Shown here: piece by piece, positions 3,290 to 56,960 of the stretch
Position numbering within the stretch: position 1 is the stretch's first letter
Layout of the letters: each line of letters starts with the position of its first letter
Origin: Candidatus Dojkabacteria bacterium
GTDB taxonomy: Bacteria; Patescibacteriota; Dojkabacteria; SC72; JAHDCA01
Direction: 5' to 3'
DNA: 64,000 nt
NCBI GenBank assembly: GCA_030583845.1
Contig: CP129478.1
Coordinates: 407,175-471,174 of the forward strand
Made by a program: the position numbers and the translations under genes
The notes under the pieces: model-generated
The model's input: only the letters and a program-made list of their open reading frames with translations
Told to the model about the DNA's origin: nothing
Database searches by the model: none

Positions 3290-5086
3290 TTAAACGGCGA
3301 ATTTCAGTTTACGTCTGACGAAATCTATCCCTTTATTGACCATCGAGACCTCACTTAGTCCCGATAGATAACTGAGCAAAAGGTAAACAGATCCACCAAC
3401 TATTGCTGTAACAATAAACAAGAGGATAATGTTGGCTGTTCGAGTTGTGTCGAGAGAGAAGTCTGTCAAACGGTAGATGAAGTACATTACCGCACCCATG
3501 ACAAATGCGTTTACCATCATCAATGAGATCGGCTTGAAAGTGCGCGCCCAGCTAAGCACTGCAACCTTCCTATTCAAGAAGAACATATTTAGAGTCATCT
3601 CTACAACAAATGCGATGCTGAGGCTAAGTGCCAGTCCACCAACCGAGGCATTTGATGCACTCCTTGTGGTCATCCAGGTCCATATATCCCCTTGGATTGA
3701 AGAGGCAATGTCCAGCAATGATGCGCTACTCTCTGGAGACAGTCCACTCCCTATCTGGATCAGCAGCTCAGACAAGATTGGACGCCAGTCAACATAGTGG
3801 CTGAAGAAATTGGTGAGGTAGTAGCTACAGACAATGTTTACAACTATTGTAATCACCGTAACAAGCAGCGGTAGCTTAGTTTCGTGCAATGCAAACAAGC
3901 CCCTTAGAGTGATTGCATTTCCCGCCTGGGCGATCATTGAGCCCGCCAACAGAGCTAGCGACCATGCTGTTACAACCGTTGCTGTCCAGTTTCCCTCAAA
4001 TGAGAAAACCAACCTCACGATTGGCAATCTAAGCACAACCATAGCCACAACGCATGGCAGGATAATGAACATCATCTGCTTCAGAGATTTATTAAACTCG
4101 GTTACGAACTGATCAAGCTTATCACGGGAGAAATACTCGGCTAAGTTTGGCAAGGCCACAAGTGAGAAAGCACTCACAAAGATCTGCACAGGGAAAAGAT
4201 GCAGGCTCATCGCATATTCAAAGGCACTCAATGCACCCGATGCGATGTTAAATGCGATCAGGGTGTTGATGACGCTGCTAATCTGCTCACCAAGGAAGGC
4301 AAGCATCCTTGGGACGGCGAGACGGATGATTTCCCAAAGTCCTGTTACATAAAACTTAGTCCTCACCTGTATATCTTCAAGATGCTCGATCTTCAGGTGG
4401 ATCTTCACGAATTTGACGACTATCGGAATCTGCACTGCAACATGGAGCATCGACCCAAGAACCATAGCCCAAGCTAGCCCTTCGACCCCCATGTCGTAAT
4501 ACCCCACAAATATGATTGAACCGAAAATCATACCTACGTTATAGAGCAGCGGCGCTAAAGCCGTTACGAAGAATCTCCTGTGGACCTGTAAGAACGCCGT
4601 AATTATTGAGCTCACGCTAAGGAACAGCGGCGAGAGCAACATGATTCTTACCAGGAGCAGGAGAAGCGCCTTCTCTTCTTCACCCGCACTTACACGCAGG
4701 TTGCTACCCAGATAGCCCGATTCTAGTATAAACTCACTCATTCCAGGCGTAAGTACATAGAGGACAAACACCATAAACATCGAGAATATCGCTATCGCAC
4801 CACTCGTAACCAAGAACAACTTGAGCAGCTTCTGTTCGCCGCGCTTCACCCTCACATCCATGAATACAGGGATCACAGCGGCATTAATTGTACCTGCAAT
4901 GATAATGTTGAAAATCGTCTCGGGCACAAGAAAGGCTGCCCAGAATATGTCGAGCTCTGAATCTATACCGAACTGATCTGCAATAAGGCGTAGCTTGAAA
5001 AAACCAAACAGCTTGGTAAAGAAGAGGATTATCGAAATGATGATTACAGTATCCCGTCTGGCAAAAAGCTTCTTAAGAAAACTCAT
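3290..5086 (-). CDS. murJ: lipid II flippase MurJ (MviN family)
   Basis: 598 aa, multi-TM. N-terminus FGFFKLRLIADQFGIDSELDIFWAAFLVPETIFNIIIAGTINAAVIPVF is typical of MurJ/MviN. Confidence 0.85.
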   Translation of the reverse strand: MSFLKKLFARRDTVIIISIILFFTKLFGFFKLRLIADQFGIDSELDIFWAAFLVPETIFNIIIAGTINAAVIPVFMDVRVKRGEQKLLKLFLVTSGAIAIFSMFMVFVLYVLTPGMSEFILESGYLGSNLRVSAGEEEKALLLLLVRIMLLSPLFLSVSSIITAFLQVHRRFFVTALAPLLYNVGMIFGSIIFVGYYDMGVEGLAWAMVLGSMLHVAVQIPIVVKFVKIHLKIEHLEDIQVRTKFYVTGLWEIIRLAVPRMLAFLGEQISSVINTLIAFNIASGALSAFEYAMSLHLFPVQIFVSAFSLVALPNLAEYFSRDKLDQFVTEFNKSLKQMMFIILPCVVAMVVLRLPIVRLVFSFEGNWTATVVTAWSLALLAGSMIAQAGNAITLRGLFALHETKLPLLVTVITIVVNIVCSYYLTNFFSHYVDWRPILSELLIQIGSGLSPESSASLLDIASSIQGDIWTWMTTRSASNASVGGLALSLSIAFVVEMTLNMFFLNRKVAVLSWARTFKPISLMMVNAFVMGAVMYFIYRLTDFSLDTTRTANIILLFIVTAIVGGSVYLLLSYLSGLSEVSMVNKGIDFVRRKLKFAV

Positions 5087-5261
5087 GACTTTTGGTTAAA
5101 TAAATAGTTGTAGAATATAAGTTTCAACGTAGTAGTTTGCTTAAAATGCGTGTCATTTAGCGAAAATTAAGCATCGGGAATTATGATATACGTTCCAATA
5201 ACTTTTATCAACTCACTATTTTCATACGAAATTAACCTTTGGGAATTACAATTAGAGCAGT

Positions 5262-6053
5262 ATGCTCAAAACCCTCCTTAACCTTCTTTTTCCAGTATTT
5301 TGCATTGGCTGTGGCAAGAGTGGAGGCTGGCTTTGCTCGAGATGCGCGAAGCGACTGATTCCAACAGTTCCCGAGTGTTTTGTGTGCAGGCGAATTTCGG
5401 GCGGTTATCGAACTCATACCACCTGCGTTCGACCGAGTTCCCCTACTCGCGCAATCCCGCTCTGGAGATATAGCGATCTAGGTCGTGACCTGATGCGCGA
5501 TTTCAAATTTAAAGGCTACTTTGATCTGCAGAGTACTTTTGCTGCAATTATCAAACAGCGGCTAAGTCATATACCTGAGATACGCGAGTTGGTAAAGGAA
5601 AGCACGATTGTCCCGATCCCGCTCCATCGCACAAGGCAGAATGAGCGTGGATTTAACCAATCGGAGATCTTGGCACGAATAATCACCCAATTTGCTTGGA
5701 AAGAGTACGGTTTCGACCTGAAAGTTGTACCACTGCTGCACAAGCTATCTGCAAACCAGCACCAGAGCAGCTCTACAGTTGAAGAGAGGAGAACAAATGT
5801 GAAAGGTGTGTACCAGATGAATGAGATCGTTGCGAAAGATTGTCCGAAGATACTGATTGTCGACGATGTCATCACAACTGGCTCGACTGTAAGCGAGGCA
5901 ATCGCGACTATATCAGAATGGTATTCAATAAATCGAAGCACACAACCCGAGATAAATTGTATGGCACTGTTTAGGGGCAGGGCTTACTTCAATAAGCGCG
6001 CTGCCCCTTCCCAACCTGTACCAACTGACTACTCTACTATCTCGGCGTCTTGA
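5262..6053 (+). CDS. comFC: ComF family protein (ComFC-like phosphoribosyltransferase)
   Basis: 263 aa. N-terminal zinc-finger CIGCG...CSRC. PRTase motif [29 protein letters not shown] as in ComFC. The 3' end overlaps the dnaK 3' end by 25 nt (convergent). Confidence 0.75.
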
Positions 6054-7963
6054 GCCTTCTCCTTATCGTCGTCAGACTTCTTCTCTTTCCCTTTAGCATC
6101 TTTATCTTCTCCACCCTCTTTCTTCTCACCCTCCTCTTTCTCAACCTCTTGGGCTGCCTGCTGATACATCTTCTGGCTGATTTCACCAACCAACTTCTGT
6201 AGCTCAGATGTCTTCTCCTTCACCTTCTCTACATCGATTGGGTCAGCCTCGATTAGCTTTTTCAGCTCTTCGATCACCTTCTCAGCCTCTTTCTGCTTAT
6301 CTGCGTCGATCTTATCTTTGTTCTCGCTAAACAGCTTCTCTGTGTTAAATATCAATGAGTCGGCGTCATTCTTTGCTTCTGCTTTCTCTTTCTTCTCCTT
6401 ATCTTCCTTCGCGAATTTTGCTGCGTCGTCTACCATCTTTCCGATCTCGTCGTCGGACAAACCGGTATTCGCAGTTATTGTAATCTTCTGCTCCTTGCCC
6501 GTAGCCTTGTCAACAGCTTTCACATTGAGGATTCCGTTTGCGTCTAGTGCAAATGTAACCTCGATCTGTGGCACTCCGCGTGGTGCGGGTGGAATTCCGT
6601 CTAGCATGAATTTGCCAAGCGTCTTATTGTCTGACGCCATTTCTCGCTCACCCTGAAGCACGTGCACTTCGACCGATGGCTGATTGTCAGCATAGGTTGT
6701 AAAAGTCTGTGTCTTCTCAGTAGGGATTGTGGTGTTTCGTGGGATCATCACGGTGCGAACTCCACCGGCCGTCTCGATACCTAAGGTCAATGGTGTCACA
6801 TCGAGCAAAGTGATGTCGTGCACATCTCCAGCGAGTACCCCACCCTGGATTGCTGCTCCTACGGCTACAACCTCATCTGGGTTGACCGATTTATTTGGTT
6901 CTTTACCGAAGAATTCAGCAACTTTCTTCTGAACTGCCGGCATTCTTGTCATACCACCGACTAGGAGGATCTCTTTTATATCACTCTTTTCCAGCTTCGC
7001 ATCAGCCAATGCTTTCTTCATTGGCTCGATGGTGCTGTCGATCAGGTCGGACACCAGCTTCTCTAATTCAGCCCGTGTGAGATCCATGCGCAGGTGCTTT
7101 GGACCTGAGGCATCTGCTGTAATGTAAGGGATATTGATCTCGCTTTTCTCCGATGATGAGAGCTCAATCTTTGATTTCTCCGCTGCTTCTTTCAATCTTT
7201 GCAAAGCTGTCTTATCTTCTCGGAGGTCGATTCCGTTATCCTTCTTGAACTGCTCGGCAATATGATCAATCAATACCTGGTCGAAATTGTCACCGCCAAG
7301 GTGTGTATCACCATTTGTTGAAAGCACTTCAAAAACGCCATCACCGATCTCGAGGATTGAGATATCAAATGTACCGCCACCAAGGTCGTATACAGCAATG
7401 ATCTCATCATTCTTCTTGTCTAAGCCATATGCAAGTGCTGCAGCTGTAGGCTCATTTACCACGCGCTTCACATCTAGACCTGCAATCTTGCCTGCGTCTT
7501 TTGTAGCTTTACGCTGTGCATCGTCGAAGTATGCTGGAACAGTAATCACGGCTTCGGTGACCTCTTCACCCAGAAATGCTTCTGCATCTTTCTTAAGCTT
7601 GGCCAAGACTTTAGCCGAGACCTCCTGAGGTGACATCCATTTATCGCCCATTTTTACTTCGACGCCACCATTCTTGGCTTTCTGCATCTCGAATGGAAGC
7701 AGCCCTTTGTCTTTCTGGACTGCTGGGTCATCCCATCTACGTCCGATCAATCTCTTGACCGAGTAGATAGTCCCAGTAGGATTGGTTACAGCCTGGTTCT
7801 TTGCCGGTGTACCGACAAGCACCTGGCCTTTCTCATCCTGTGCAACTACAGATGGTATAAGTCGACCACCCTCGCTGCTTGCGATCACCTCTGGCTTACC
7901 ACCCGAGAGGTATGCCATTGCTGAGTTTGTTGTACCCAGATCTATTCCGATTATTTTTGCCAT
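6029..7963 (-). CDS. dnaK: molecular chaperone DnaK (Hsp70)
   Basis: 644 aa. [18 protein letters not shown], acidic C-terminal tail. Confidence 0.97.
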
Positions 7964-15900: not shown

Positions 15901-16854
15901 GTAGAAGCCTTCAACATACTGCAATCTTCGGATCAAAGACATCTTCTTTGCCTTTGATTTCTGATTCTTGATCTGGTGCTTAAGGTTTGAGACCTCTCCA
16001 TCGAGGTCAATCTTATCCAAAAGCTCCTGAATAGCCTCAGCACCCATCTTTGCTTTGAAGAAGAGCAGGTCACGATCCTCAAGGTCAACATACTCATCTT
16101 CTGTAATTATTGTGCCTACTGTTACCTCTTTTAGAAGCTTCATCAGTTTTGTATAGAAGGTCTCGATCGACTCCTCTCGCTCTGCAAACTCGCGTCGAAC
16201 CTTCGCAACTTTCTGGCTCCTCTTATGCTCGATCTGACTTGCCTTAAATTCTGCCTTTGACTTATCTTTCTCTTTCTTGCCACTCTGCTTGATCTGACCA
16301 TCAAATTCATCGTTCACTTCCTTAAGCGCAGCTTCCAATTCTGTATCCAGTGTCTTTCGATCTTCTGCGAGATACTCTTCAGCAGCCTTTACCTTCACCT
16401 CTCGGGACTCATTGTCCACTTCAACAACCATATATCTGGTGTAGTAAACAACTGAGAGCATCTTCTTGTGTGACATATCGAGAACGATAGACATCTTGTT
16501 TGGGACACCGTATGCAAACCATACATGTGTTACAGGTACTGCGAGGTCGATGTGACCCATTCGCTCGCGTCGCACATCTTTTCGAGTTACCTCTACACCA
16601 CACTTATCACAGATAATGCCCTTGTATCGTACTTTCTTATACTTACCACAGAAGCATTCATAATTCTTGGTAGGACCGAAGATCTTCTCACAGAAGAGAC
16701 CCTCTGGCTCCATCCTATATGTTCGGTAGTTAATGGTCTCGGCTTTTGTAACCTCACCATATGACCACCCTTTGATCTGCTCCGGCGATGCAAGCGTGAG
16801 CTTCAATGCATCGAAGTCGGAGTAGTCCTGTCTAAAGTTCTTCTTGGTTTTCAT
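12928..16854 (-). CDS. rpoC: DNA-directed RNA polymerase subunit beta' (RpoC)
   Basis: 1308 aa. NADFDGDQMAVH catalytic motif, zinc-binding CxxC N-terminus, full-length collinear. Confidence 0.97.
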   Translation of the reverse strand: MKTKKNFRQDYSDFDALKLTLASPEQIKGWSYGEVTKAETINYRTYRMEPEGLFCEKIFGPTKNYECFCGKYKKVRYKGIICDKCGVEVTRKDVRRERMGHIDLAVPVTHVWFAYGVPNKMSIVLDMSHKKMLSVVYYTRYMVVEVDNESREVKVKAAEEYLAEDRKTLDTELEAALKEVNDEFDGQIKQSGKKEKDKSKAEFKASQIEHKRSQKVAKVRREFAEREESIETFYTKLMKLLKEVTVGTIITEDEYVDLEDRDLLFFKAKMGAEAIQELLDKIDLDGEVSNLKHQIKNQKSKAKKMSLIRRLQYVEGFYQNKIDPSWMIIKTLPVIPPELRPIIALSGGKFATSDLNDLYRRIINRNNRLKRLIEIGAPDVILRNEKRMLQESVDALIDNSHRPSKPMMNNKKLPYKSLTDDLRGKKGIFRRNLLGKRVDYSGRAVIVGDTRLKLHQCGLPKAVALEMFKPFLIHDLIETELAPNIKVAKEMIDAEEDIVWDILEKIIKNKPVLLNRAPTLHKYSIQAFYPVLVEGDSIRIHPLVCKAYNADFDGDQMAVHVLLTEEAIKEGVEKMLSTYNIIDIKNGGVLASPTNDMLLGYFLMTDYKESDKPRMFGSFEEAVRAYDRGLLEIDEAIFVKGKGKVHNTSVGRVMFNQVLPEDYKFINQRIGKSDVDEIIREIKDQYSLDEVVRLLDDLKMLGFKFATTLGFSFSMEDCKVDIDLKKRIQEVEQKDLHLQENYLQGLLTEQEKTNLSVTMWNEFTDELAAEAWASLDKNNPVFEMVTSGANGGQIQARQIMSIKGMARNASGDWIKLPLKGNYREGLGTFEYFVATGAGRKGVADTALRTASSGYLTRKLHDVAHDVIVRMEDCGYDGDGYIIRRADERRLSFEKTIEGRVLAQDLKDGKGKVVLKKNEIISREVAENSEELGINEVFVRSPIVCEAPLGICQMCYGHDIEQNKLVEIGKAAGVIAAQSIGEPGTQMTLKQFHFGGAKKVDITQGLPRVEELFEARTPKAEAEIASVDGKVSITTADDGSSQILITGKKLSERHYIVGNAKKVSVADGDKVTIGQTLFIDSHEKEKQAPFTGVVKIDHGIMTVTGKLDAEELISVLSGFDILVIDGQEVTAGTQITVGSVDPKKLAEYASITRAQEYVIREVQGVFSEQGVTIDDVHIEVIVRQMAKLGMVMDAGDSEYLIGSLVNRYGAELLNDGLREEGKNVALIAPKLLGIKTTALKTESFLSAMSFQEQVRVLTESAITGRVDTLQGMKENVIIGRRIPVGDEARIDIEEAKELYAEPEVITATE

Positions 16855-19800
16855 TGGTCTCCTCGCTCTTCGCGTTAGAAATTAGATCAAGGTTTATGCA
16901 GAGTGCATTCAACTCTTTTACGAGTACCTTGAATGACTCCGGTAAGTTGATATTTTCAATCTTCTCACCATGGATAATTGCTTTGTAAGCCTGGGCACGT
17001 CCCTGGACATCGTCTGATTTGATAGTGAGCATCTCCTGAAGTGCATACGGTGTCCCGTGTGCCTCGAGAGCCCATACTTCCATTTCTCCGAATCTCTGAC
17101 CACCCATCTGTGCCTTACCACCAAGAGGCTGCTGTGTTACCAATGTGTATGGTCCTGTAGATCTAGCATGTACCTTCTCGTCAGCGATATGCTTCAGCTT
17201 CAACACATACTTCATACCTACGGCTACTTTCCTTGGGAACTTCTCACCTGTCCTACCGTCATACAGATCAACCTTCTCTGCCATCTCAAATCCGTTCTTC
17301 TTCAATTCTTCTGCAATCCACTCGCTGTTTACATCCTCAAATGTTGGGATTGAGAGCTTGATTCCAAGCATCTCGGCATAGTGCCCGAAGTGCACCTCAA
17401 GCGCCTGACCCATGTTCATACGCTTTACAAATGTAGGTGTCAGGACAATATCAACTGGCTGTCCATCTGCCGTGAAAGGCATATCCTCAACTGGCCTGAT
17501 AGCTGCGATTGTGTTCTTGTCTCCGTGCCTACCCGACAGCTTATCACCGTAGTCTACTTTCTTGGTCTCTGCGACCCATACCTTCACCTGCTTTAGCACG
17601 CCTGGCTTCAACTTATCGTCATTCTCGACTGATAGCATCTGCGTCTTAACAACAATACCTTTCGATCCGTGGGGAACTCTGAGTGATACATCTCTTACTT
17701 CGCTTGCAGCTTTTCCGAAGATTGCTCTCAAGAGCCTTTCCTCAGCTGTAAGCTCCTGCTCACCTCTTGGTGCTACGATACCGGCGAGGATATCTCCACC
17801 ATTTACACGTGCACCTACTCGTACAACACCCTCGATATCAAGATTGTGCAAGATTCTGATCGCTCACATGTGGGATATCTGCAGTAAGTACCTCAGGTCC
17901 GAGATCTGTATCTCGGAGATCTTGCATATATTCTCGGATATGGATTGATGTCAAAGTGTCATCACGCACAATGCTCTCTGAGATAACTGTTGAGTCCTCA
18001 TAGTTATAACCCTCGTAGAACATCAATGCTGCTCGAATATTTGTACCAAGTGCTAGCTCACCATTGTCCATAGTTGGACCGTCAACGAGCACATCATCTT
18101 TCTTAAATTTCTGTCCTACATCGACACGTGGCCTCTCTGAGAAAGCTGTGTCATAGTTCGACCTGAAGAATTTGGTGATCTTGTACTCCTTCTTTCCAAG
18201 CTTCTTATAATCAACCAAGATATGGTCTGCATCAAGTGTCAGTACTACACCATCATCTTCTGCGAATACACCCCAACCTGACTGTCGAGCAACGATCTCT
18301 TCATATCCTGTACCAACCATAGGTGCCTGCTGCTTAAGCAGAGGGACAGCCTGTCTTTGCTGGTTTGAACCGGTAAGCGCTCGCTTCGAGTCGTCGTGGT
18401 GAACAAATGGGATAAGAGCCATACCTACACCTGCCTGCTGTGCAGCAACCAGGTCGATATAGTTCACCATCTGTACATCCTGCATCAAGAAGTCTCCCCT
18501 ATACCTTACAGGTACGATCTTCTCAAGGATGTTGCCATCTCCGTCCACCTTGATGCCTTGCAAAGTAACATGCGCATCTTTCTCACTTGCTGCATCTAGA
18601 TACTCGATCGACTCTGTGATGAACGATCGAACCTCTAGCTCCTTCATATCCTTATTCTTAGCCAACTTTGTCGCAATTGCGGCTGTGATTACCTCACCCT
18701 CTTTTACGATAAGTTTGCCAGCCTCTTTGATATCTTCTGCGGCTAATCTTCCAACTGCATCCTTGCCATTGTTCTTTACATGATTGCGGACTACGTAGTA
18801 TGGAGCCTCGATAAAACCAAAGTCGTTGATCTTTGCGAACATTGCCAGCTGGTTTACAACACCGATCGATGCGCTTTCTGGGCTGGTGATAGGGTCGATA
18901 CGTGAGTAGTGTGTGTGGTGAACCTCACGGATTGAGAATGTAGCTCTCTCCTTGGTGATACCACCTGGGCCTGATGCGGTTACTTTTCGCTTATTCTCAA
19001 GCTCTGAAAGGATATTTGCCTGATCCATGAACATTGAAAGCTGGTTTGAGCCGAAGAAGTTGAGGATCGCAGCCGAGATAGGCTTGGTGCTGACAAGCAT
19101 TGATGGTGTAAGTTTTGAATCCTCACCGTACATGCTCATCTTATCCTTAATATTCTTCTCTACTCTTCGTACACCTACTCTGAGCTGGTCGATCAATACC
19201 TCACCGACGCTTCGAATTCTTCGATTTGACAATGAGTCGATATCGTCCGCTGTTTCAACGCCGTTGTTGATCTGGATAAGCTTCTTGATTATCAAGATCA
19301 GATCATCTGTGTAAAGCCTGCACTCTGGACCCTCAAGAGGATACTCTGTGCCAAGCTTTCGGTTGAGCTGGTAACGACCAACCTTTCCGAGGTCAAACCT
19401 TCTGTCATTGAAGAAATGTCCCTTAACATACTTCTCTGCACTCTCCAGGGTTACATTCTCATCAGGTCGGAGCTTGTTGTAGACATTGATTACCGCCTCT
19501 TCTCGTGATCTTGTGAAATCTCTTGCCAATGTAGCTTCTATATATTTGTGGTCTTCACTTGTATCTACATCTTTGAAAAGATCCCTTATCTCATCGTCTG
19601 ACTCATAACCCAAAATACGGAGAAGCTCGGTAAGGAGTACCTTTGGTCTCTTCTGTACCAATCTAATTGAGATTACATCGTGCTTGTTTACTTCAAATTC
19701 ATACCACTGTCCTCGTGCTGGCATCAGCTTTGCCGAGTAAAGGTTTCTTGCTGGAGATTTATCACTGATGTCGAAAAGCACTCCCTCTGCTCGCACTACC

Positions 19801-20213
19801 TGATGGGTAACTACTCTGCGTACACCATTAATAACAAAGTAGCCATCTTCAGTCATTAGAGGCATATCTGCCACGAATATCTCCTGCTCCTTGAGCTCAC
19901 CAGTCCTGTTGTTCAGCAGCTGCGAAGTCACGTATACAGGCGCATCATAAGAAAGCCCCTTGTCAGAGGCTTCTTCTACTGTGCGATTTGGCTTCCCATA
20001 TCGAAAATCCTTAAAGTCGAGGGTCCACATCCTCTCCATAGTGTCTTTCACCGGGGTGATTTCGGAGAAGAGGTACTCAAGGCCATCCTTCTTAAATTCT
20101 TCAAACGATTTGATCTGTGCTTCGATAAGATTCGGAAATTGAATCTTTGACAGATCTGTAGCACCGAGGTTGACTCTGCCCGCCCGGTTACTCAAGATTT
20201 GCTTTGCTGCCAT
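16832..20213 (-). CDS. rpoB: DNA-directed RNA polymerase subunit beta (RpoB), split into two overlapping ORFs by an apparent +1 frameshift near 17840-17851
   Basis: The N-part ORF (to about 17838) ends ...ADIPHVSDQNLAQS*. The C-part ORF begins (TTG)HNLDIEGVVRVGARVNGGDIL. Together they align collinearly with E. coli RpoB ...[32 protein letters not shown]. One extra nucleotide within AATCTTG restores the frame. Confidence 0.9.
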
Positions 20214-20607: not shown

Positions 20608-22891
20608 ATGGGAAGACGAAAAAAAGCGACATCGGAAATAACTATTCATAGTAAAGAAACCAGGATTATACTTGGTTTATTCCTCATACTTATAGCGCTT
20701 ACGCTTATCGCTGCACCGTTCAGCACAGAGGCTGTCTTCGAGCCGATTGTATTCTATCTTGGGGTACCATCAGTGGCCTGGGGAATCCTCATACTCCTCA
20801 TGGCAATCCGCGTCATCAAAGGCCCGAGCAAGTTTACAAACTGGAAAACCATTACAGGTACGCTTCTTATCGCTCTAATTCTCAACATCCTCTTCACATT
20901 TTGGATCCCCGAGGAGATATTAAGCAGCCAGACAGACTTCTCCAATGAAGGTGGCCAACTCGGATATATATTGCACACACAGCTAAATGCCATGGTAGGA
21001 GACTTCATCGAATTTGTACTTATTATTGTATTAATAATTGTAGCCTTCTCCCTCATCTCAGGTGTAAGCCTCGAACGGATCTCAAATAGTGTGGGCAACC
21101 TATTCGACAAGCTATTTGAAAGCCGCAATAAACTGAAGCTTCCAAAAGGTGAGGATGACGACGGAATCAGCATTGTAGATAGTATGTTCAAAGGCGGCGA
21201 CGACGATGAGGCTATAGATGAAGCAATTGAGCCAGAGATTGAAAATGGAGCCGAGCCGATCGCGAATATGAGGGCAAAAACCGAGCCAAATATGAGTGCC
21301 AACGTCGAGGCAGAGATCCGTGAAGCAACAGGCAAAGAGTTCGTAGAATCACCAAAGTCAAACAGCAAAGAAAGCAGTGAAGAGGAAAGCAGTACACTTA
21401 GCGAGCCACTATATCCAAACTGGAAATTCCCACCAGTAAACCTGCTCCAGAAGCCACAGGTCAGCCCGCAAGACCCAAACCTACACAAGCGCAACGCCAG
21501 CGTCATCGAGAAAACCTCTGCGCAGCTTCAATATTGAGTCACGTATCAGCAAAGTCACAATCGGCCCAACAGTCGTCCAGTACGCTCTAAGCATTACCGT
21601 AGGCACCAAGGTCGCAAAAGTGCGCAACCTCTCAAATGACATCGCATTGGCTCTAGCGACACCTGAGTCACAAATCCGCATCGAGGCTCCGATCCCTGGC
21701 ACCTCATTAATTGGTATCGAGATCCCCAACCCTACCCCGAATTTTGTATTCATCCGTGAGCTGGTCGAGAAGCTGAATGAAGAGCACGACAAATATAGAC
21801 TACCTATCATTCTTGGTAAGAATGTCGCTGGCCAACCAATCATCAAAGACCTCACAAGTCTCCCCCACCTCTTGGTCGCAGGCGCGACTGGTACCGGTAA
21901 ATCTGTAGGTATCAACTCGCTACTAACTGGTCTACTTATGACCAAGTCTCCTGATGAGCTAAAGCTTATTCTCGTCGACCCAAAGATGGTTGAGATGGCG
22001 CCTTATAATGGCATCCCTCACCTACTCACTCCGGTCATCACAGATATGGAGCTGGTAGTAAATGCGCTACAATGGACTGTCGAGGAGATGTTGAAGCGGT
22101 ATAGGGTATTGAAGCAGATCGGAGCCAGGAATATCACCGAGTACAACGACAAGGTTGGCGATCTAACAATGCCATACATAATAGTAGTAATCGATGAGAT
22201 GGCTGACCTTATGCTTACGACTGGAGTAGATGTAGAGTCAAAGATTGTACGACTAGCTCAGATGGCACGAGCAGTGGGTATTCACCTAATATTGGCAACC
22301 CAGAGACCTTCTGTAGATGTAATCACTGGCTTGATCAAGGCAAACGTGCCGGGTCGAATCGCATACAGCGTATCGACAGCTATCGACTCACGAGTAATCA
22401 TCGACCAGACTGGCGCAGAGACACTGATCGGCAAGGGAGATATGATGTTTAAATCACCTTCTACAGGCAGACCTATCCGTATGCAGGGTGCTTGGACTGA
22501 CACAGTCGACACCGAGGCGATCATCAGCTTTATCAAAGACCAGACGAAAGAGCTTAAGTATAGCGACGCAATCACCCAGCCGAAAGAAGAGAAGTCAGAA
22601 GGCGGAGGAGCTGCTTCGGGTCATTCAGATGACGCAATGTTCGCAGATGCACTCGAGGTAGTTGTAAATGCTCAAAAGGCATCGGCCTCCCTACTCCAGA
22701 GGAGATTGAGGATCGGTTATAACCGGGCTGCCAGATTGATTGATGAATTGCATGAGGCAGGAGCAATAGGCCCACAGGAGGGTAGTTCACCACGAAAAGT
22801 GCTAGTCTCCAGCAGTGATCAGATCTTAGGCGCAGGCAGCAGTGACGTTGATGATTTTGCAGACAACCAGGACGACAAGTCCGACTTCTAG
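20608..22891 (+). CDS. ftsK: DNA translocase FtsK/SpoIIIE (N-terminal membrane domain, linker, motor, gamma domain), with an apparent +1 frameshift near 21521-21529
   Basis: ORF1 (20608..21537) gives 4-TM and linker. The frame-2 reading from about 21440 gives ...FNIESRISKVTIGPTVVQYAL... (the FtsK alpha/beta start), then the Walker motor VAGATGTGKS and gamma domain LLQRRLRIGYNRAARLIDELHEAG. The junction KTSAQ(L)/FNIES matches the FtsK ETLAEFGIEA region after skipping 1 nt. Confidence 0.85.
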
Positions 22892-52441: not shown

Positions 52442-54580
52442 ATGAACCTGAATTCGAATGTTAAAAAAATTGTAATAAAGCCCGATCACGAGCTTACGGA
52501 TGTGATTCGCCAAGTCAAGAATGCGAAGGAGGATCGCATTGTCCTCACATTCACAGAGAAATCTGACATGCTTGTTAGCCCTATCAATATGAAGGTGCTT
52601 CTCGAAGAGGCCGATGCAAATAGCAAGCTACTTGTAACCCAGATCATCCAAAACCCGGCCGGTATCCGCAACTCGAAAGCGGCGGGAATTATCACAACCG
52701 ACAGCTCTGGTGCAGTTGACGAGGATATGTGGAGTAAAGCAGAAGAGACCTTCTCAAATCGTGTCGCAGCATTTCAGAGTCAGCTTAAGTCAAACCGTAC
52801 AACCCATCAGGACACAGATACACATGCTGATCCTGAAGCAGATATTATTGTAGACCTCACCGACACAGTCAAAAATCCTGTCACCGAGATTGAATTTGAA
52901 GATCAGAACCCTGAGCTGACCCATGTTGAGGAGCTAACCACTGAATCGTCTCCAGATGAGATGAGCGATCTACAGGTAGATGATATGAGCCATAAAGCTG
53001 AAGAGGTTGCAGGTGAGGAGAATACACCGGACATGCAAAGCCAGACAAATCAGCCCGAGACAGCATTTAGCAAGCGAGTAAACAGCGCGATTAAACGCTC
53101 ACAGGAAGAGCTAATCCGCAAGAGCAGCAGCAAGAAGGTTGTAAGCGAAAGCGGAGTTGCGATCGCACTCGACAGCGACATTGACGATCAATCAGCTGGT
53201 AGTGCAAATTCTATGGTCGGTAAAGATTTCAATGCAATGACGCCGGGTGGGATGGCAAAGGCACCATCAAAGATCCCTGCAATGTCTGGCGCACAGATGT
53301 TTAAAGCACCTGGTGGCAAAGCTACATCTGGAGCCAAGTTCAATTTCGCAAATTTGAAGCTACCAAAGATAAATATGGCCGCCCTAAAGAAGAAAGGTCC
53401 TATTGTTGCGATCCCCATTGCTTTAGTTGCCCTATTCATCGTCTACATCGTGTATGCAAACGCTCCTTTTGCTTCTGCCAAGATCTATATTGAGAGTCGT
53501 CCAGTCGAGGTCGAGGAATCATTCACCGGTAAGCCAGATGTCACAGAATTTAATGTCGAAGATAGAATGGTCCAGATCAAGCAGGAAGTGGTAGAAAAGG
53601 GTCGCTCCGACTCTCGTGAGACCACCCAGACAGCACGTCGTGGTGAGAAGGCCGATGGTATAGCAAATGTGAGATGCTATCTAAATGGATCTCTAGAGCT
53701 AGCCGAGGGTACAGTGATAACTGCGCCAAACGGTCTCCAGTTCCAGACCTTAGCCACAGTGACTATGATCTGCCCATGGCAGGAAACTGTCGCAGTCGAA
53801 GCACTGGCTGTTGGAAGCGAATACAACATGCAATCGGGTACACTGTTCTCGGTACCAAACTACAATGTAAACCAGGTGGTTATGCAAAATGATCTTTCGG
53901 CATTTACAGGTGGCTCAAGCGAGGAGTACCAGGTGGTTGGACAGGTCGACATCGACAACGCCAGCAAAGATCTACAGGAATCAGCCTTCGAAGAGGCTAA
54001 TAGTGAGCTTCAAGAGATGGCAAAAGATGGCTGGAAAATTATTGATTCAACGATCAAGAACGAGGTTGTTGGTGGTGTGAAAAGCGATTACCCTGTCGGT
54101 GCAGAGGCGGAAATAGTTAATGTGTCTTTGGAGACTAAATCAACCGCGCTTTATTATAAGGAGGATGAGATAAAAGATGTGGGTGAAGAGCTTCTACTCG
54201 AGGCTGCTCGTGAGCAGAATCTGTTCGATTCAGATGAAGATCTTGAGCTGAAGCTTGGTGATGATATTTTAACTGAGGTAAGTGTGGAAAAAGTCGAGGA
54301 CACGACAGTGACAATAAAAGTGAAATCTTCCGGCTCAGTTAAGCCCGACGTCGACAAGAATCAGATCATTGCTGACCTAAAGGGCATGGGCTGGGAAAAT
54401 GGTACAAAGTATCTTGAAGATCTTAACTTCACATCTAAGGACCCTCAATATGAGTTCTCCCCTACCTGGTTCCCAGGATTCTTGTGGAGATTCCCATCAA
54501 AGCAGGGCCGGATCAAGCTCGTAGTCGAAGAAGTTGAGAGACCTGCCGAGGAGAATACGAGTGAGGCGACTGAGGAGTAA
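52442..54580 (+). CDS. hypothetical bitopic membrane protein (cytoplasmic N-domain, acidic linker, TM, large extracytoplasmic C-terminal region)
   Basis: 712 aa. TM IVAIPIALVALFIVYIVYA at about residue 320. No catalytic motif recognised. Directly follows the FtsA-like gene. Confidence 0.5.
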   Translation: MNLNSNVKKIVIKPDHELTDVIRQVKNAKEDRIVLTFTEKSDMLVSPINMKVLLEEADANSKLLVTQIIQNPAGIRNSKAAGIITTDSSGAVDEDMWSKAEETFSNRVAAFQSQLKSNRTTHQDTDTHADPEADIIVDLTDTVKNPVTEIEFEDQNPELTHVEELTTESSPDEMSDLQVDDMSHKAEEVAGEENTPDMQSQTNQPETAFSKRVNSAIKRSQEELIRKSSSKKVVSESGVAIALDSDIDDQSAGSANSMVGKDFNAMTPGGMAKAPSKIPAMSGAQMFKAPGGKATSGAKFNFANLKLPKINMAALKKKGPIVAIPIALVALFIVYIVYANAPFASAKIYIESRPVEVEESFTGKPDVTEFNVEDRMVQIKQEVVEKGRSDSRETTQTARRGEKADGIANVRCYLNGSLELAEGTVITAPNGLQFQTLATVTMICPWQETVAVEALAVGSEYNMQSGTLFSVPNYNVNQVVMQNDLSAFTGGSSEEYQVVGQVDIDNASKDLQESAFEEANSELQEMAKDGWKIIDSTIKNEVVGGVKSDYPVGAEAEIVNVSLETKSTALYYKEDEIKDVGEELLLEAAREQNLFDSDEDLELKLGDDILTEVSVEKVEDTTVTIKVKSSGSVKPDVDKNQIIADLKGMGWENGTKYLEDLNFTSKDPQYEFSPTWFPGFLWRFPSKQGRIKLVVEEVERPAEENTSEATEE

Positions 54581-54588
54581 ACCGACAC

Positions 54589-54732
54589 ATGGTTAAATTG
54601 TGGAAGGCGATTAGGCGAGTCTCTCCAATTCTTAAGGAGTACATGAACGGTGAAATTAGTGACAAAGCGCTTATTGAGAGGCTGGATCTATTTTTTGTGA
54701 AATTTAGTGAGAAGAGCGAACTGGAGATGTAG
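54589..54732 (+). CDS. possible small ORF (47 aa), weak support
   Basis: ATG at 54589. GAGGAG lies 11 nt upstream, which is a long spacer. MVKLWKAIRRVSPILKEYMNGEISDKALIERLDLFFVKFSEKSELEM. Confidence 0.2.
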   Translation: MVKLWKAIRRVSPILKEYMNGEISDKALIERLDLFFVKFSEKSELEM

Positions 54733-54830: not shown

Positions 54831-55109
54831 CTAATCCTCTGACCGAACATTGGACACCTTCAGATCCTCTGATTTGTAAAAAAAATACCCACAGTGCTCT
54901 GTAAATATCCCTATTTCCCCTAAGAGCTCATTCTTAATATAAAAGGCATATCTCAATTTCATAGTTGAGTCATCTGGGAATAAAACCTCAACAGTACTAT
55001 TAGCGTCAAAATCAGTCGCTTCTAAGGTTTTACGTGCCTGGCCCGTTCGCTCATATGTATATTTTTCAATTTGTTCAACCCAGTTATCTGGGACAATATT
55101 GCTTACCAT
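54831..55109 (-). CDS. hypothetical protein (cassette ORF between att-like repeats)
   Basis: 92 aa, no motif recognised. Sits between repeat copies at 54753 and 55146. Confidence 0.4.
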   Translation of the reverse strand: MVSNIVPDNWVEQIEKYTYERTGQARKTLEATDFDANSTVEVLFPDDSTMKLRYAFYIKNELLGEIGIFTEHCGYFFYKSEDLKVSNVRSED

Positions 55110-55145
55110 TTTTGTATTATATACTGCTTATACACTTTATCCTAC

Positions 55146-55159
55146 GGAGAGAAAGGGAT
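55146..55159 (-). repeat. att-like direct repeat: exact 14-nt copy of the tRNA-Ser 3' end (GGAGAGAAAGGGAT on plus)
   Basis: Exact match to tRNA-Ser positions 55973-55986. Followed by a conserved block of about 105 nt (55160-55265) homologous to 55829-55937. Confidence 0.55.
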
Positions 55160-55379
55160 GTTTATGCGTGTCACTTCGACCCTCTCAATAAATCAGGGAG
55201 TTGAGCTGCTCCCTGATATACGTACCCCCGCTCGCTTCGCGAAGCAGAGGTTCTCACAATAATCTTCTTCATTGATCTCCAACCATCCAGAGGCTTTCGG
55301 AGATTAAATGCAAAACTACTCTTATAGTTAGTGCAAAAGATACAACAGTTCGTATAGCTCAAAGTAAGATTTTGATGCG

Positions 55380-55781
55380 TTACCCGAAATAACCCTTTTC
55401 ATATACCTTTTGAAAAAATTCCTCCATATTTTTACCTAGTTCAATAATTGCGTCGTATTCGAACATAAATGGAATAAGAATAACTTTCGATTGATTTTCT
55501 CTTAGATCGAAGGCTATAGCTTCACCTCCACCATTTGATCCTATTAAAAAGATTCCAGGAGTAAACTTTTCTACCTCATAATTGGCATTCATTTGCTTTA
55601 GATCTTCGACTTTGTACAGTATTAAATATTCCTCACCAATAAATCCTTCCCCACCATTATGTAGCTGTAGAAATGATAAATAATCAGAGGGTGTATTATC
55701 CGGCAAGTTTAGATCTAATAGGAGTTTTTTATCGACTCCTGGGTTGCCATTAAATTTTTTAAGATATTTCTCGTTGATCAT
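55380..55781 (-). CDS. SMI1/KNR4 (SUKH-1) family protein, putative polymorphic-toxin immunity protein
   Basis: 133 aa. LPDNTPSDYLSFLQLHNGGEGFIGEEYLILYKVEDL...FLIGSNGGGEAIAFDL is the SUKH/SMI1 hallmark. No toxin gene is adjacent. Confidence 0.6.
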   Translation of the reverse strand: MINEKYLKKFNGNPGVDKKLLLDLNLPDNTPSDYLSFLQLHNGGEGFIGEEYLILYKVEDLKQMNANYEVEKFTPGIFLIGSNGGGEAIAFDLRENQSKVILIPFMFEYDAIIELGKNMEEFFQKVYEKGYFG

Positions 55782-55814
55782 GTTTATAAATATTCATAAA
55801 TAATTTTTGAACTC

Positions 55815-55828
55815 GGAGAGAAAGGGAT
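55815..55828 (-). repeat. att-like direct repeat: exact 14-nt copy of the tRNA-Ser 3' end
   Basis: GGAGAGAAAGGGAT. The adjacent 55829-55937 block contains hairpins (CAGGGAG...CTCCCTG; CTTCGCGAAG palindrome) shared with 55160-55265. Confidence 0.55.
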
Positions 55829-55937
55829 GGACGCTCGGTCGCTTTGCTCCCTCTCTAGATATCAGGGAGTTAAACTGCTCCCTGATATACGTACCCCTGC
55901 TCGCTTCGCGAAGCAGAGGTTCTCACAATAATCTTCT

Positions 55938-55974
55938 CCGTTGACCTGCAACCCGATGGGTTACAGGTCAACGG
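55938..55974 (-). promoter_or_regulatory. 17-bp hairpin (CCGTTGACCTGCAACCC-GAT-GGGTTACAGGTCAACGG) abutting and overlapping the 3' end of tRNA-Ser
   Basis: Read directly. One G-U wobble. Could be a tRNA 3' processing or terminator structure, or an integrase arm site. Confidence 0.4.
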
Positions 55975-56059
55975 AGAGAAAGGGATTCGAACCCTTGGCA
56001 CAGTTTCCTGCGCGCACGCACTCCAAGCGTGTCCTTTCGACCACTCAGGCATCTCTCCT
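55972..56059 (-). tRNA. tRNA-Ser (anticodon GGA), type II with long variable arm, no encoded CCA
   Basis: Minus strand: GGAGAGA-UG-CCUG AGUGGUCGAAA GG-A-CACGC UUGGAGU GCGUG-CGCGCAGGAAACUGUGCC-AAGGG UUCGAAU CCCUU-UCUCUCC-G. All stems pair, G discriminator. Confidence 0.85.
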
Positions 56060-56192
56060 CTGCTTTCTTTTGGCTAATATGAGCCTCAGAAAGAGCATCA
56101 AGAGTATATCAAAAGTACTGTTTGGCTTAAAGAAGCTTGGATCATGATAATTGCAACTATTTGAAGAGATGCTTCTCAACCTTATCGAGGCT
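56060..56192. repeat. 133-bp segment upstream of tRNA-Ser, duplicated at 56828-56960 (about 93% identity)
   Basis: Aligned by eye, about 10 mismatches. Both copies lie directly 5' (in tRNA orientation) of a tRNA-Ser copy. Confidence 0.7.
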
Positions 56193-56297: not shown

Positions 56298-56594
56298 CTA
56301 CATCTTCGCAAGAATTTCTTGCTTCTTCTGTGTAAATTCTTCCTCTGTGAGGATTCCTTTATCTCTAAGATCTGCTAATTTCTGAAGCTCTGCTGCATAA
56401 TCAACTGCAGGAGCATCTGCCACTGGAGCGTCTGCTGCTGGCATTGGTGCTTGCTGCATCTGCGGATCTTGTGGTGCAGCCTGTGCCTGCTGCTGCGCCT
56501 GGTTACTTCCCTCGATATTCTTGCGGATTGCTCGGTTTGTTCGTGCACTGCTAACCGCCTGTGCAGTAACTGCTGCTCTTAATAATCTACCCAT
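56298..56594 (-). CDS. SHOCT-domain protein (Gln/Ala/Pro-rich linker, C-terminal SHOCT)
   Basis: 98 aa. C-terminal LQKLADLRDKGILTEEEFTQKKQEILAK matches the SHOCT motif. Confidence 0.45.
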   Translation of the reverse strand: MGRLLRAAVTAQAVSSARTNRAIRKNIEGSNQAQQQAQAAPQDPQMQQAPMPAADAPVADAPAVDYAAELQKLADLRDKGILTEEEFTQKKQEILAKM

Positions 56595-56665: not shown

Positions 56666-56827
56666 GGAGAGAAAGGGATATCTACGTGTGCCACTTCGTG
56701 GCAACTTCGCTGTCCGTCATGCTTCCCACTCACTTCGCTCGCGGAGCATGTCCGCTCGAACCCTTGGCACAGTTTCCTGCGCGCACGCACTCCAAGCGTG
56801 TCCTTTCGACCACTCAGGCATCTCTCC
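56666..56827 (-). tRNA. second tRNA-Ser(GGA) copy interrupted by a 75-nt insertion inside the T-loop (between UUCGA and AUCCC); pseudo-tRNA or intron-containing
   Basis: 5' part 56827..56755 is identical to copy 1 through GGGUUCGA. Then the 75-nt insert (plus 56680-56754). Then AUCCCUUUCUCUCC (plus 56666-56679). Confidence 0.6.
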
Positions 56828-56960
56828 TTTGCTTTCTTTTAGCTCATTTGAGCCTTAGAAAGAGCATCAAGAGTATATCAAAAGTACTGTTTGGCTTAAA
56901 GAAGCTTGGATCGTGGTAATTGCGACTATTTGAAGAGATGCTTCTCAACCTTATCGAGGC
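56828..56960. repeat. second copy of the 133-bp tRNA-upstream segment
   Basis: See 56060-56192. Overlaps the last 11 codons of the ORF 56926..57213. Confidence 0.7.

Follow-up and report, generated by a model that had tools for sequence, protein, structure and literature searches.

A stand-alone SUKH-1 gene in a tRNA-Ser(GGA)-linked islet of a Candidatus Dojkabacteria genome: probable cargo of serial tRNA-targeted integration

Results

Identity and composition of the SUKH-1 gene

We analysed a 64,000-nt stretch of a Candidatus Dojkabacteria genome (contig CP129478.1, positions 407,175 to 471,174; hereafter the window), which carries a small open reading frame (ORF) of the SUKH-1 family close to a tRNA-Ser(GGA) gene. 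The results point, with moderate confidence, to a horizontally acquired, stand-alone SUKH-1 gene left as cargo by serial tRNA-targeted integration at a hotspot in the T-loop of this tRNA. The gene is located as follows:

55380..55781, minus strand: SUKH-1 / SMI1_KNR4 ORF of 133 amino acids (aa), GC 0.33, identified by Pfam, a PDB profile match and fold

An earlier note on this DNA had read the product as a SUKH-1 protein, and a profile search gave a significant match to Pfam SMI1_KNR4 (PF09346; E 1.1e-10, 42.6 bits, curated cut-off 25.4), a domain that is present in all close homologues as well. The second Pfam match, SUKH_6, was a bare pass (27.3 vs. a cut-off of 27). A profile built from 30 SUKH homologues matched PDB 3D5P, a member of the SMI1/KNR4 family, at E 6e-17, and the AlphaFold model of the protein (pLDDT 94.1) could be superposed by Foldseek on the same structure with a TM-score of 0.80 (E 9e-8). 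Further fold matches of the model included B. subtilis YobK (2PRV), yeast Knr4, Syd and an Rhs immunity protein. Because the Pfam score, the 3D5P profile match and the AlphaFold superposition agree, the SUKH-1 family assignment is secure. From family membership alone we infer an immunity function for the protein; no NCBIfam equivalog was matched. A database search returned a 100% identical entry, WKZ31529.1, 'SMI1/KNR4 family protein [Candidatus Dojkabacteria bacterium]', which is encoded on a 1,036,382-bp contig of a Candidatus Dojkabacteria metagenome-assembled genome. The GC content of the gene is 32.8%, vs. 44.9% for the window and 42-47% for the conserved neighbours, which is consistent with a foreign origin. 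Searches for this SUKH subfamily on viral contigs gave no matches.

Partial-tRNA repeats divide a tRNA-Ser islet

As proposed in the earlier note, the SUKH gene lies in a tRNA-linked segment: partial-tRNA repeats bound it, and the whole islet is anchored by an intact tRNA-Ser(GGA) gene. The tRNA and the repeats, all on the minus strand, are:

55972..56058, minus strand: intact tRNA-Ser(GGA), anchor of the islet (ARAGORN; Rfam tRNA, 54 bits)
56666..56679, minus strand: partial-tRNA repeat 0, exact, the 3' piece of an interrupted tRNA copy
55815..55828, minus strand: partial-tRNA repeat 1, exact, 33 nt upstream of the SUKH start codon
55146..55159, minus strand: partial-tRNA repeat 2, exact, 220 nt downstream of the SUKH stop codon
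54753..54766, minus strand: partial-tRNA repeat 3, with 1 mismatch, at the distal end of the islet and flanked, as is repeat 1, by a sequence termed arm B

The repeated 14-mer, ATCCCTTTCTCTCC, is the last 14 nt before the discriminator base of the tRNA, from T-loop position 59 to acceptor position 72. Its reverse complement, GGAGAGAAAGGGAT, was found as four exact copies and one copy with 1 mismatch, all five on one strand between 54753 and 56679 (~1.9 kb) and with none elsewhere in the window; the only mutated copy is the one furthest from the tRNA. Shuffles gave a chance expectation of ~0.84 matches for a 14-mer with up to 2 mismatches, and against this figure the five copies confirm that the att-like repeats noticed earlier near the SUKH gene are real. 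Their reported distance of 34-42 bp on each side is right for the upstream repeat (33 nt) but wrong downstream, where the nearest 14-mer is 220 nt away and is separated from the stop codon by 95 nt of unique DNA and a 125-nt structured repeat (55160-55284). Within 27-36 nt on either side of the gene we found only an insignificant 5-nt GTTC/GAAC inverted match. A degenerate partial tRNA 68 nt past the stop codon (55298-55311) was considered and rejected as insignificant, since it shares TCTCCG only with the repeats.

The five co-oriented copies of tRNA positions 59-72/73 split 2.3 kb into segments that are empty or hold one small ORF each, and the ORFs are all on the strand of the tRNA. Bounded by 14-mers are an empty 143-nt unit, the SUKH segment, a segment with a 92-aa ORF and one with a SHOCT-domain ORF. 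Read along the minus strand, the order begins with a 95-aa coiled-coil ORF, a copy of tRNA positions 1-58, a 76-nt insert, a 14-mer and the SHOCT ORF; it continues with a duplicate termed D1, the intact tRNA, a unit termed U1, a 14-mer, the 33-nt spacer and the SUKH gene, and it ends with the 95 nt of unique DNA, a second unit (U2), a 14-mer, the 92-aa ORF, arm B, the last 14-mer and the end of a 712-aa gene. The islet thus has an intact tRNA at one boundary and four further same-strand copies of positions 59-72, as is expected of a tRNA island. When the 15-mer ATCCCTTTCTCTCCG was scanned against viral contigs, 55 matches were obtained; most fall in tRNA genes from hosts without relation to this clade or in unrelated attP-like fragments, or arose by chance, and they carry no information on the clade.

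Structured repeat units and an interrupted tRNA copy

Two related units and a second, disrupted tRNA copy are also part of the islet:

55829..55971, minus strand: empty unit U1, composed of a 20-bp hairpin starting in the tRNA 3' end, a 105-nt sequence (D2) and the 13-nt arm B
55160..55284, minus strand: unit U2, composed of the 3' half of the hairpin, D2 and a different arm (arm A); this unit bounds the SUKH segment on its 3' side
56666..56827, minus strand: second copy of tRNA-Ser(GGA), broken in the T-loop, as seen when the two tRNA regions are aligned
55987..56191 and 56756-56960, minus strand: D1 duplication, 205 nt, 96% identical

U1 and U2 are ~85% identical over 141 nt including the 15-mer, and D2 alone is 90% identical over 105 nt. 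The hairpin of U1 is terminator-like, and the fold z-scores are -5.5 to -9.3 for U1 and -4.5 for U2. Together with the adjoining partial tRNA (55145-55284, 55814-55971), both units adopt a predicted tRNA-like multi-branch fold (z -4.5 to -5.5) that is closed by GAGAA/UUCUC and contains a T-arm-like hairpin. No Rfam family matched the units, of which three homologous copies are known. The sequences just 5' of the 14-mers form a mosaic, with arm A or arm B and with D2 present or absent. A composite pattern of the D2 core and the partial tRNA gave 0 matches in viral and metagenome contig collections, and arm B gave 0 matches in viral contigs; enrichment of the GCGAAGC and CGAAGTG motifs across the window was insignificant.

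D1 takes in 37 nt from the end of the 95-aa ORF, the intergenic region and positions 1-58 of the tRNA. In the interrupted tRNA copy, positions 1-58 run from 56827 to 56756, the 76-nt insert from 56755 to 56680, and positions 59-72 follow; the insert sits exactly between A58 and A59, without a duplicated core. It has no Rfam match and a modest fold z-score. Both ARAGORN and Rfam called the intact tRNA-Ser copy only.

Partial-tRNA repeats and serine recombinases in relatives

With the window FtsA as a query in species-representative genomes we retrieved three loci. In two of them (L003 and L004, with FtsA proteins 67% and 65% identical to that of the window), the tRNA-Ser(GGA) gene is followed by a long hairpin, 75-130 nt of further sequence and finally 17 nt that duplicate the 3' end of the genome's own tRNA (GAATCCCTGTCTCTCCG); in L004 this whole unit occurs twice in tandem. 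The partial tRNA matches the tRNA of its own genome, with CCCTTT in the window and CCCTGT in both relatives. A GAGAACC motif and a GC-GAA-GC-tipped hairpin are common to the L003 element and the window D2, and GAGAACC..GCGAAGC was seen in no other fetched locus; the L004 element is unrelated in sequence to the window units.

More distant Dojkabacteria share the synteny RNase J, FtsA, a 6xx-aa gene, tRNA-Arg, tRNA-Ser, ..., Wzy, KhpB and YidC. At the orthologous tRNA, partial-tRNA repeats are absent from L021, L023 and L006-L020. A metagenome search with the 5' half of the tRNA-Ser(GGA) gave 15 loci, all of a more distant lineage and without partial repeats, which served as a negative control. 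No SUKH gene was found at the orthologous site in the relatives' loci. Since the repeats are found in L003 and L004 and in none of the more distant relatives, they are a derived, variable feature of tRNA-Ser(GGA); such variable presence, like the atypical composition, is typical of tRNA islands.

The L003 locus also links the partial tRNA to a recombinase. On the opposite strand, a frameshifted ORF whose 3' end contains the 17-mer carries Resolvase, Recombinase and Zn_ribbon_recom domains and hence represents a large serine recombinase. A Phage_rep_O gene adjoins it, and the contig ends inside the element. Related genes were found at two other loci:

L003 15377-17000, L029 10001-11675 and L034 1552-3228: large serine recombinases (541 aa)

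In these genes the last codons run through the reverse complement of a tRNA-Ser acceptor and T-arm (anticodons GGA, GCT and TGA, respectively). The L034 recombinase is 95% identical to that of L003, has RepO upstream, and its last codons overlap the 3' end of tRNA-Ser(TGA). The L029 recombinase, 70% identical to that of L003 and located on a 770-kb contig, overlaps the 3' end of tRNA-Ser(GCT) in the same manner, with HTH_36 and Replic_Relax genes upstream. As judged from these sequences, the loci represent a family of plasmid-like integrative elements whose predicted target is the tRNA-Ser T-arm and acceptor end and which would supply a replacement 3' end. No relatives of the L003 recombinase were found in viral contigs. 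We also observed a related recombinase/RepO element with defence-type cargo (L035 435-9573), comprising an MmeI-like methylase/restriction fusion, a reverse transcriptase, RhuM and a helix-turn-helix (HTH) regulator.

SUKH homologues in integron-type cassettes

The nearest SUKH homologues are 56-73% identical to the window protein and are encoded on short metagenome contigs. Three of the four contexts examined (L001, L002 and L026/L027) are integron-type cassettes flanked by attC sites; in the fourth, L025, attC-like sites were not seen. The homologue on L001 is the first cassette after a tyrosine-recombinase gene and is followed by attC-bounded HXXEE and nitroreductase cassettes, that on L002 has a barstar cassette on one side and a HicB/HicA pair on the other, and that on L026/L027 is bracketed by a 25-nt inverse-core pair, GTTAGGTGC...GCACCTAAC. 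Between two attC sites of the L026 cassette array (1176-1279) there is, in addition, a perfect tandem array of ~13 copies of the 8-nt unit AGGGATTT.

The attC family of L001 and L002, TTACATCAYATAACACGGCATAT...AAACGTT, recurs in L029, at an integron-like platform of a small-genome organism (ERZ24794647 NODE_2, 3900-6320). This platform encodes a 273-aa IntI/XerA-like tyrosine recombinase; divergent from its gene are an attI-like GTTATATGAAATA and two or more cassettes with attC boundaries (adh_short and a 101-aa ORF). The platform lies directly beside the serine-recombinase element described above. The tyrosine recombinase is 57% identical to the L001 fragment and scored 219 bits against NF040815 (cut-off 220) and 204 against TIGR02249 (cut-off 265), both below the cut-offs.

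For the window copy the picture is different. The 3' untranslated region of the SUKH gene did not align with six attC sites from L001, L002 and L029, no sigma70-like promoter was found in the 33-nt spacer 5' of the gene, and Pfam scans revealed no tyrosine recombinase, such as the integrase of an integron, in the 64 kb. An attC relic was also tried: GCTATACGAAC-T-GTTG downstream of the gene resembles the L'-R' half-site of the L002 attC, and alignment gave no support. With no attC, no nearby integrase and no sigma70-like promoter, the window SUKH gene is not callable as an integron cassette. The proposal of the earlier note that immunity genes circulate as independent cassettes is therefore supported for the subfamily, three of whose four examined homologue contexts are attC cassettes, and is not supported for the window copy, for which no attC, no recombinase within 64 kb and no recognisable promoter were found. 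Also against an independent cassette, its 3' boundary copies a repeat unit that also occurs empty.

Genomic setting of the islet

Pfam scans covered about 50 ORFs across the window, and neither a toxin domain nor a recombinase domain was found among them. The matches were to housekeeping proteins: GroEL, MurJ, DnaK/GrpE/HrcA, ribosomal proteins, RpoB/C, FtsK, DnaG, sigma-70, MetRS, RNase J, FtsA, a Wzy-type ligase, KhpB and YidC, together with a second, LeuRS-like class I aminoacyl-tRNA synthetase; about ten ORFs had no Pfam match. A tblastn search with the L003 serine recombinase detected no remnant in the window. The same-strand neighbours of the SUKH gene, the 92-aa ORF on one side and the SHOCT ORF beyond the tRNA, have no toxin domain either, so that the gene is solitary, as originally described, with no cognate toxin beside it or anywhere in the 64 kb by Pfam scan. 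The two neighbours are:

54831..55109, minus strand: 92-aa ORF of the next segment, family of unknown function with the motif FTEHCGYH
56298..56594, minus strand: SHOCT-domain ORF, 98 aa, between the two tRNA copies (Pfam SHOCT, E 2.5e-10)

The 92-aa family comprises 154 representatives at E<1e-3, of ~90-100 aa and with an invariant F..D.S..F.E..GY, and its confident model shows a single helix and a small SH3/Sm-like beta-barrel. Searches of Pfam, NCBIfam and PDB and a fold search gave no significant match, and these results neither favour nor disfavour the idea that this ORF is a second immunity gene; the family has one distant match on viral contigs. The SHOCT ORF has promoter-like and terminator-like sites of its own.

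At the right end of the window, YidD, RnpA and L34 were recognised outside the Pfam scan, from ORF translations and the synteny with L021. Together with YidC they place the locus near the usual origin-proximal gene cluster, the islet being ~8 kb from rpmH-rnpA-yidD-yidC.

Beyond the distal end of the islet, a 47-aa ORF without a family match (54589-54732, plus strand) occupies the space between the end of the 712-aa gene and the distal partial-tRNA repeat, directly adjoining both. The conserved 712-aa gene itself (52442-54580, plus strand), 3' of ftsA, has a weak Baseplate_J-like match and encodes a protein with a long, acidic, low-complexity N-terminal half; its orthologues hold the post-FtsA position across Dojkabacteria-like genomes. 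As a synteny query, the 712-aa protein retrieved four relatives only, at 35-43% identity. Elsewhere in the window, rpoB is spread over a pair of overlapping ORFs of 791 and 339 aa (16832-20213, minus strand), with the break inside Rpb2 domain 6, and ftsK over two ORFs, a 4TM part and a motor part (20608-22891, plus strand). These splits could be frameshifts, sequencing errors or genuine splits.

Discussion

Origin of the islet and its SUKH gene

If, as we favour, the SUKH gene is cargo left by serial tRNA-targeted integration, elements of the serine-recombinase type would have integrated repeatedly at the tRNA-Ser T-loop, each integration restoring the tRNA and leaving the old 3' end behind as a scar. 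Later deletion of the recombinase and replication backbones would leave short cargo pieces, the SUKH gene among them. The gene probably arrived as accessory cargo, since its nearest relatives are integron-type cassettes and the L029 platform adjoins a recombinase element. If expressed, the SUKH protein would bind to a toxin domain coming from other cells and neutralise it, the role proposed for isolated copies of the family.

Several observations weigh against this explanation. No recombinase, recombinase fragment or replication gene was detected in the window islet, where a tRNA island would carry a site-specific recombinase inside the element. The serine-recombinase link comes from relatives whose FtsA is 65-67% identical to that of the window, and the window repeats begin at A59, those of L003 and L004 at G57. 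One crossover site does not account for the 5' mosaic of two arms with D2 or none, nor does the interrupted tRNA copy show a duplicated core. The order in L003 (tRNA, terminator, X, 17-mer, recombinase) resembles an intact attB beside an unrecombined attP and not a simple attL, and a distal partial tRNA was not found within 10 kb of the L029 element. Expression of the SUKH gene, for which no sigma70-like promoter was found, is itself putative. The unexplained insert, the mosaic of arms, the tRNA-like fold, the L003 order and the L029 end keep alive the readings in which the units are mobile in trans or act as functional RNA.

In the first of these, the segments would be active mini-cassettes, and a recombinase from another part of the genome or from a co-resident element would excise each unit (ORF, structured repeat and partial tRNA), circularise it and put it back at the tRNA-derived site, as in an integron-like gene-capture array with the tRNA T-arm as its attachment site. 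We regard this as unlikely. It would fit the co-orientation of all ORFs with the tRNA, the strongly structured units, the occurrence of an 'empty' unit in three genomes with a tandem duplicate in L004, and the occurrence of SUKH genes as cassettes at other loci. Despite a divergence of ~15% between the flanking units, four of the five 14-mers are exact; however, this contrast is insignificant (roughly p = 0.09 per pair). The 64 kb yielded no recombinase, the boundaries are heterogeneous (arm A or B, D2 or none), D2 has two copies only and none in the other fetched loci, and the composite-pattern scans of the viral and metagenome collections were empty. Hybrid sites of serine integrases are, moreover, normally no substrate for further integration.

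We see only a slim chance that the partial-tRNA-bounded units form a working gene-capture array in Patescibacteria, with a large serine recombinase encoded elsewhere that shuttles single-gene modules at the tRNA-Ser T-arm. In such an array, some modules would be drawn from the attC-cassette pool seen in related small genomes.

Concerning the protein, it seems improbable that the SUKH fold serves a non-immunity role here, for instance as a protein-binding adaptor or as a regulator in the manner of yeast Smi1/Knr4 and bacterial Syd. The SUKH superfamily includes non-immunity members (PMC3113570), Knr4 and Syd are among our fold matches, and neither a cognate toxin in the window nor an NCBIfam equivalog was matched. 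Small single-domain bacterial SUKH-1 proteins, however, are the class linked to toxin genes (PMC3113570). YobK and the Rhs immunity protein are fold matches as well, the homologues are accessory cassettes beside barstar and HicAB cassettes, and the spread across phyla is patchy, at 50-60% identity.

The repeat units could, lastly, be functional RNA elements and not recombination scars. They would then be tRNA-like 3' structures, terminated by a duplicate T-arm and acceptor strand, that guide the processing (RNase P/Z-type maturation) or the stabilisation of the transcript upstream of them, and local duplication would have multiplied them. This would suit the multi-branch fold of U1 and U2 with the 14-mer, the compatible substitutions in the GAGAACC and GC-GAA-GC-tipped hairpin of L003, and the way in which the partial tRNA follows each genome's own tRNA, but we give it little credence: there is no Rfam match and three homologous copies only, D2 is missing both from the 76-nt insert and from the segment that follows the 92-aa ORF, the L004 element is unrelated in sequence, and a terminator-like hairpin stands between tRNA and unit. 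The position of the L003 partial tRNA within the 3' end of the recombinase ORF points instead to an att site.

Relation to known systems

Zhang, Iyer and Aravind (2011, PMC3113570), who defined the superfamily, proposed that isolated SUKH genes provide immunity against non-self toxins. The window gene resembles the isolated 'supernumerary' genes of that study in being a single-domain SUKH-1 gene of ~130 aa with the motifs and fold of the family and no adjacent toxin. It differs in its host, an ultra-small Patescibacteria genome, and in its location, a tRNA-linked islet instead of a toxin locus or an array of tandem SUKH genes; its immunity function is putative.

Islands at tRNA genes with partial-tRNA scars are classical. 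A close parallel is offered by the tycheposons of Prochlorococcus, in which repeated integration at a tRNA displaces earlier copies outward, with partial tRNAs and decayed elements as the result; a minority of them rely on large serine recombinases (bioRxiv 10.1101/2020.12.28.424599). Both have an intact tRNA at one end, partial-tRNA repeats inward with cargo between them, a degraded furthest repeat and a streamlined genome. Yet the window islet is tiny (2.3 kb, with segments of 0.14-0.7 kb), has no integrase or integrase fragment left, contains a duplicated tRNA split in the T-loop, and belongs to another lineage and another recombinase family.

Integron cassettes are represented by the homologues on L001, L002 and L026, which are single-ORF units with GTT...AAC inverse cores and attC, the one on L001 beside an IntI/XerA-like tyrosine recombinase, whereas the window SUKH gene has neither attC nor a nearby integrase and is bounded by partial-tRNA repeats. 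Mobile arrays of orphan immunity genes, AID-1 and rAID-1, have been shown experimentally to protect Bacteroidales; the integrative and conjugative elements that carry AID-1 insert at tRNA, and rAID-1 has integron-like intergenic repeats (bioRxiv 10.1101/471110). These share with the islet orphan immunity-type genes of skewed GC on or beside mobile DNA. A rAID-1 array is recognised by a 5' XerD-like recombinase followed by at least two co-directional low-GC immunity genes (bioRxiv 10.1101/471110). The window islet, in contrast, has no XerD-like or other recombinase at its head, holds one ORF of a recognisable immunity family, lies in another phylum and is known here from sequence alone. Neither mobile orphan immunity genes nor the islet architecture are new; the host phylum is unusual.

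Significance

Patescibacteria live in attachment to other cells, and their genomes, of ~1 Mb, contain little accessory DNA. The presence of a foreign immunity-type gene at a tRNA hotspot suggests that even these genomes sample the anti-toxin gene pool of their community, and it identifies the tRNA-Ser T-arm as an entry point for foreign DNA. Should the units prove to form a working array, this would amount to integron-like swapping of immunity and accessory genes in ultra-reduced episymbiont genomes. The plasmid family that targets tRNA-Ser with a serine recombinase, and the IntI/XerA-like cassette platform of a small-genome organism, may be of more interest than the SUKH gene itself.

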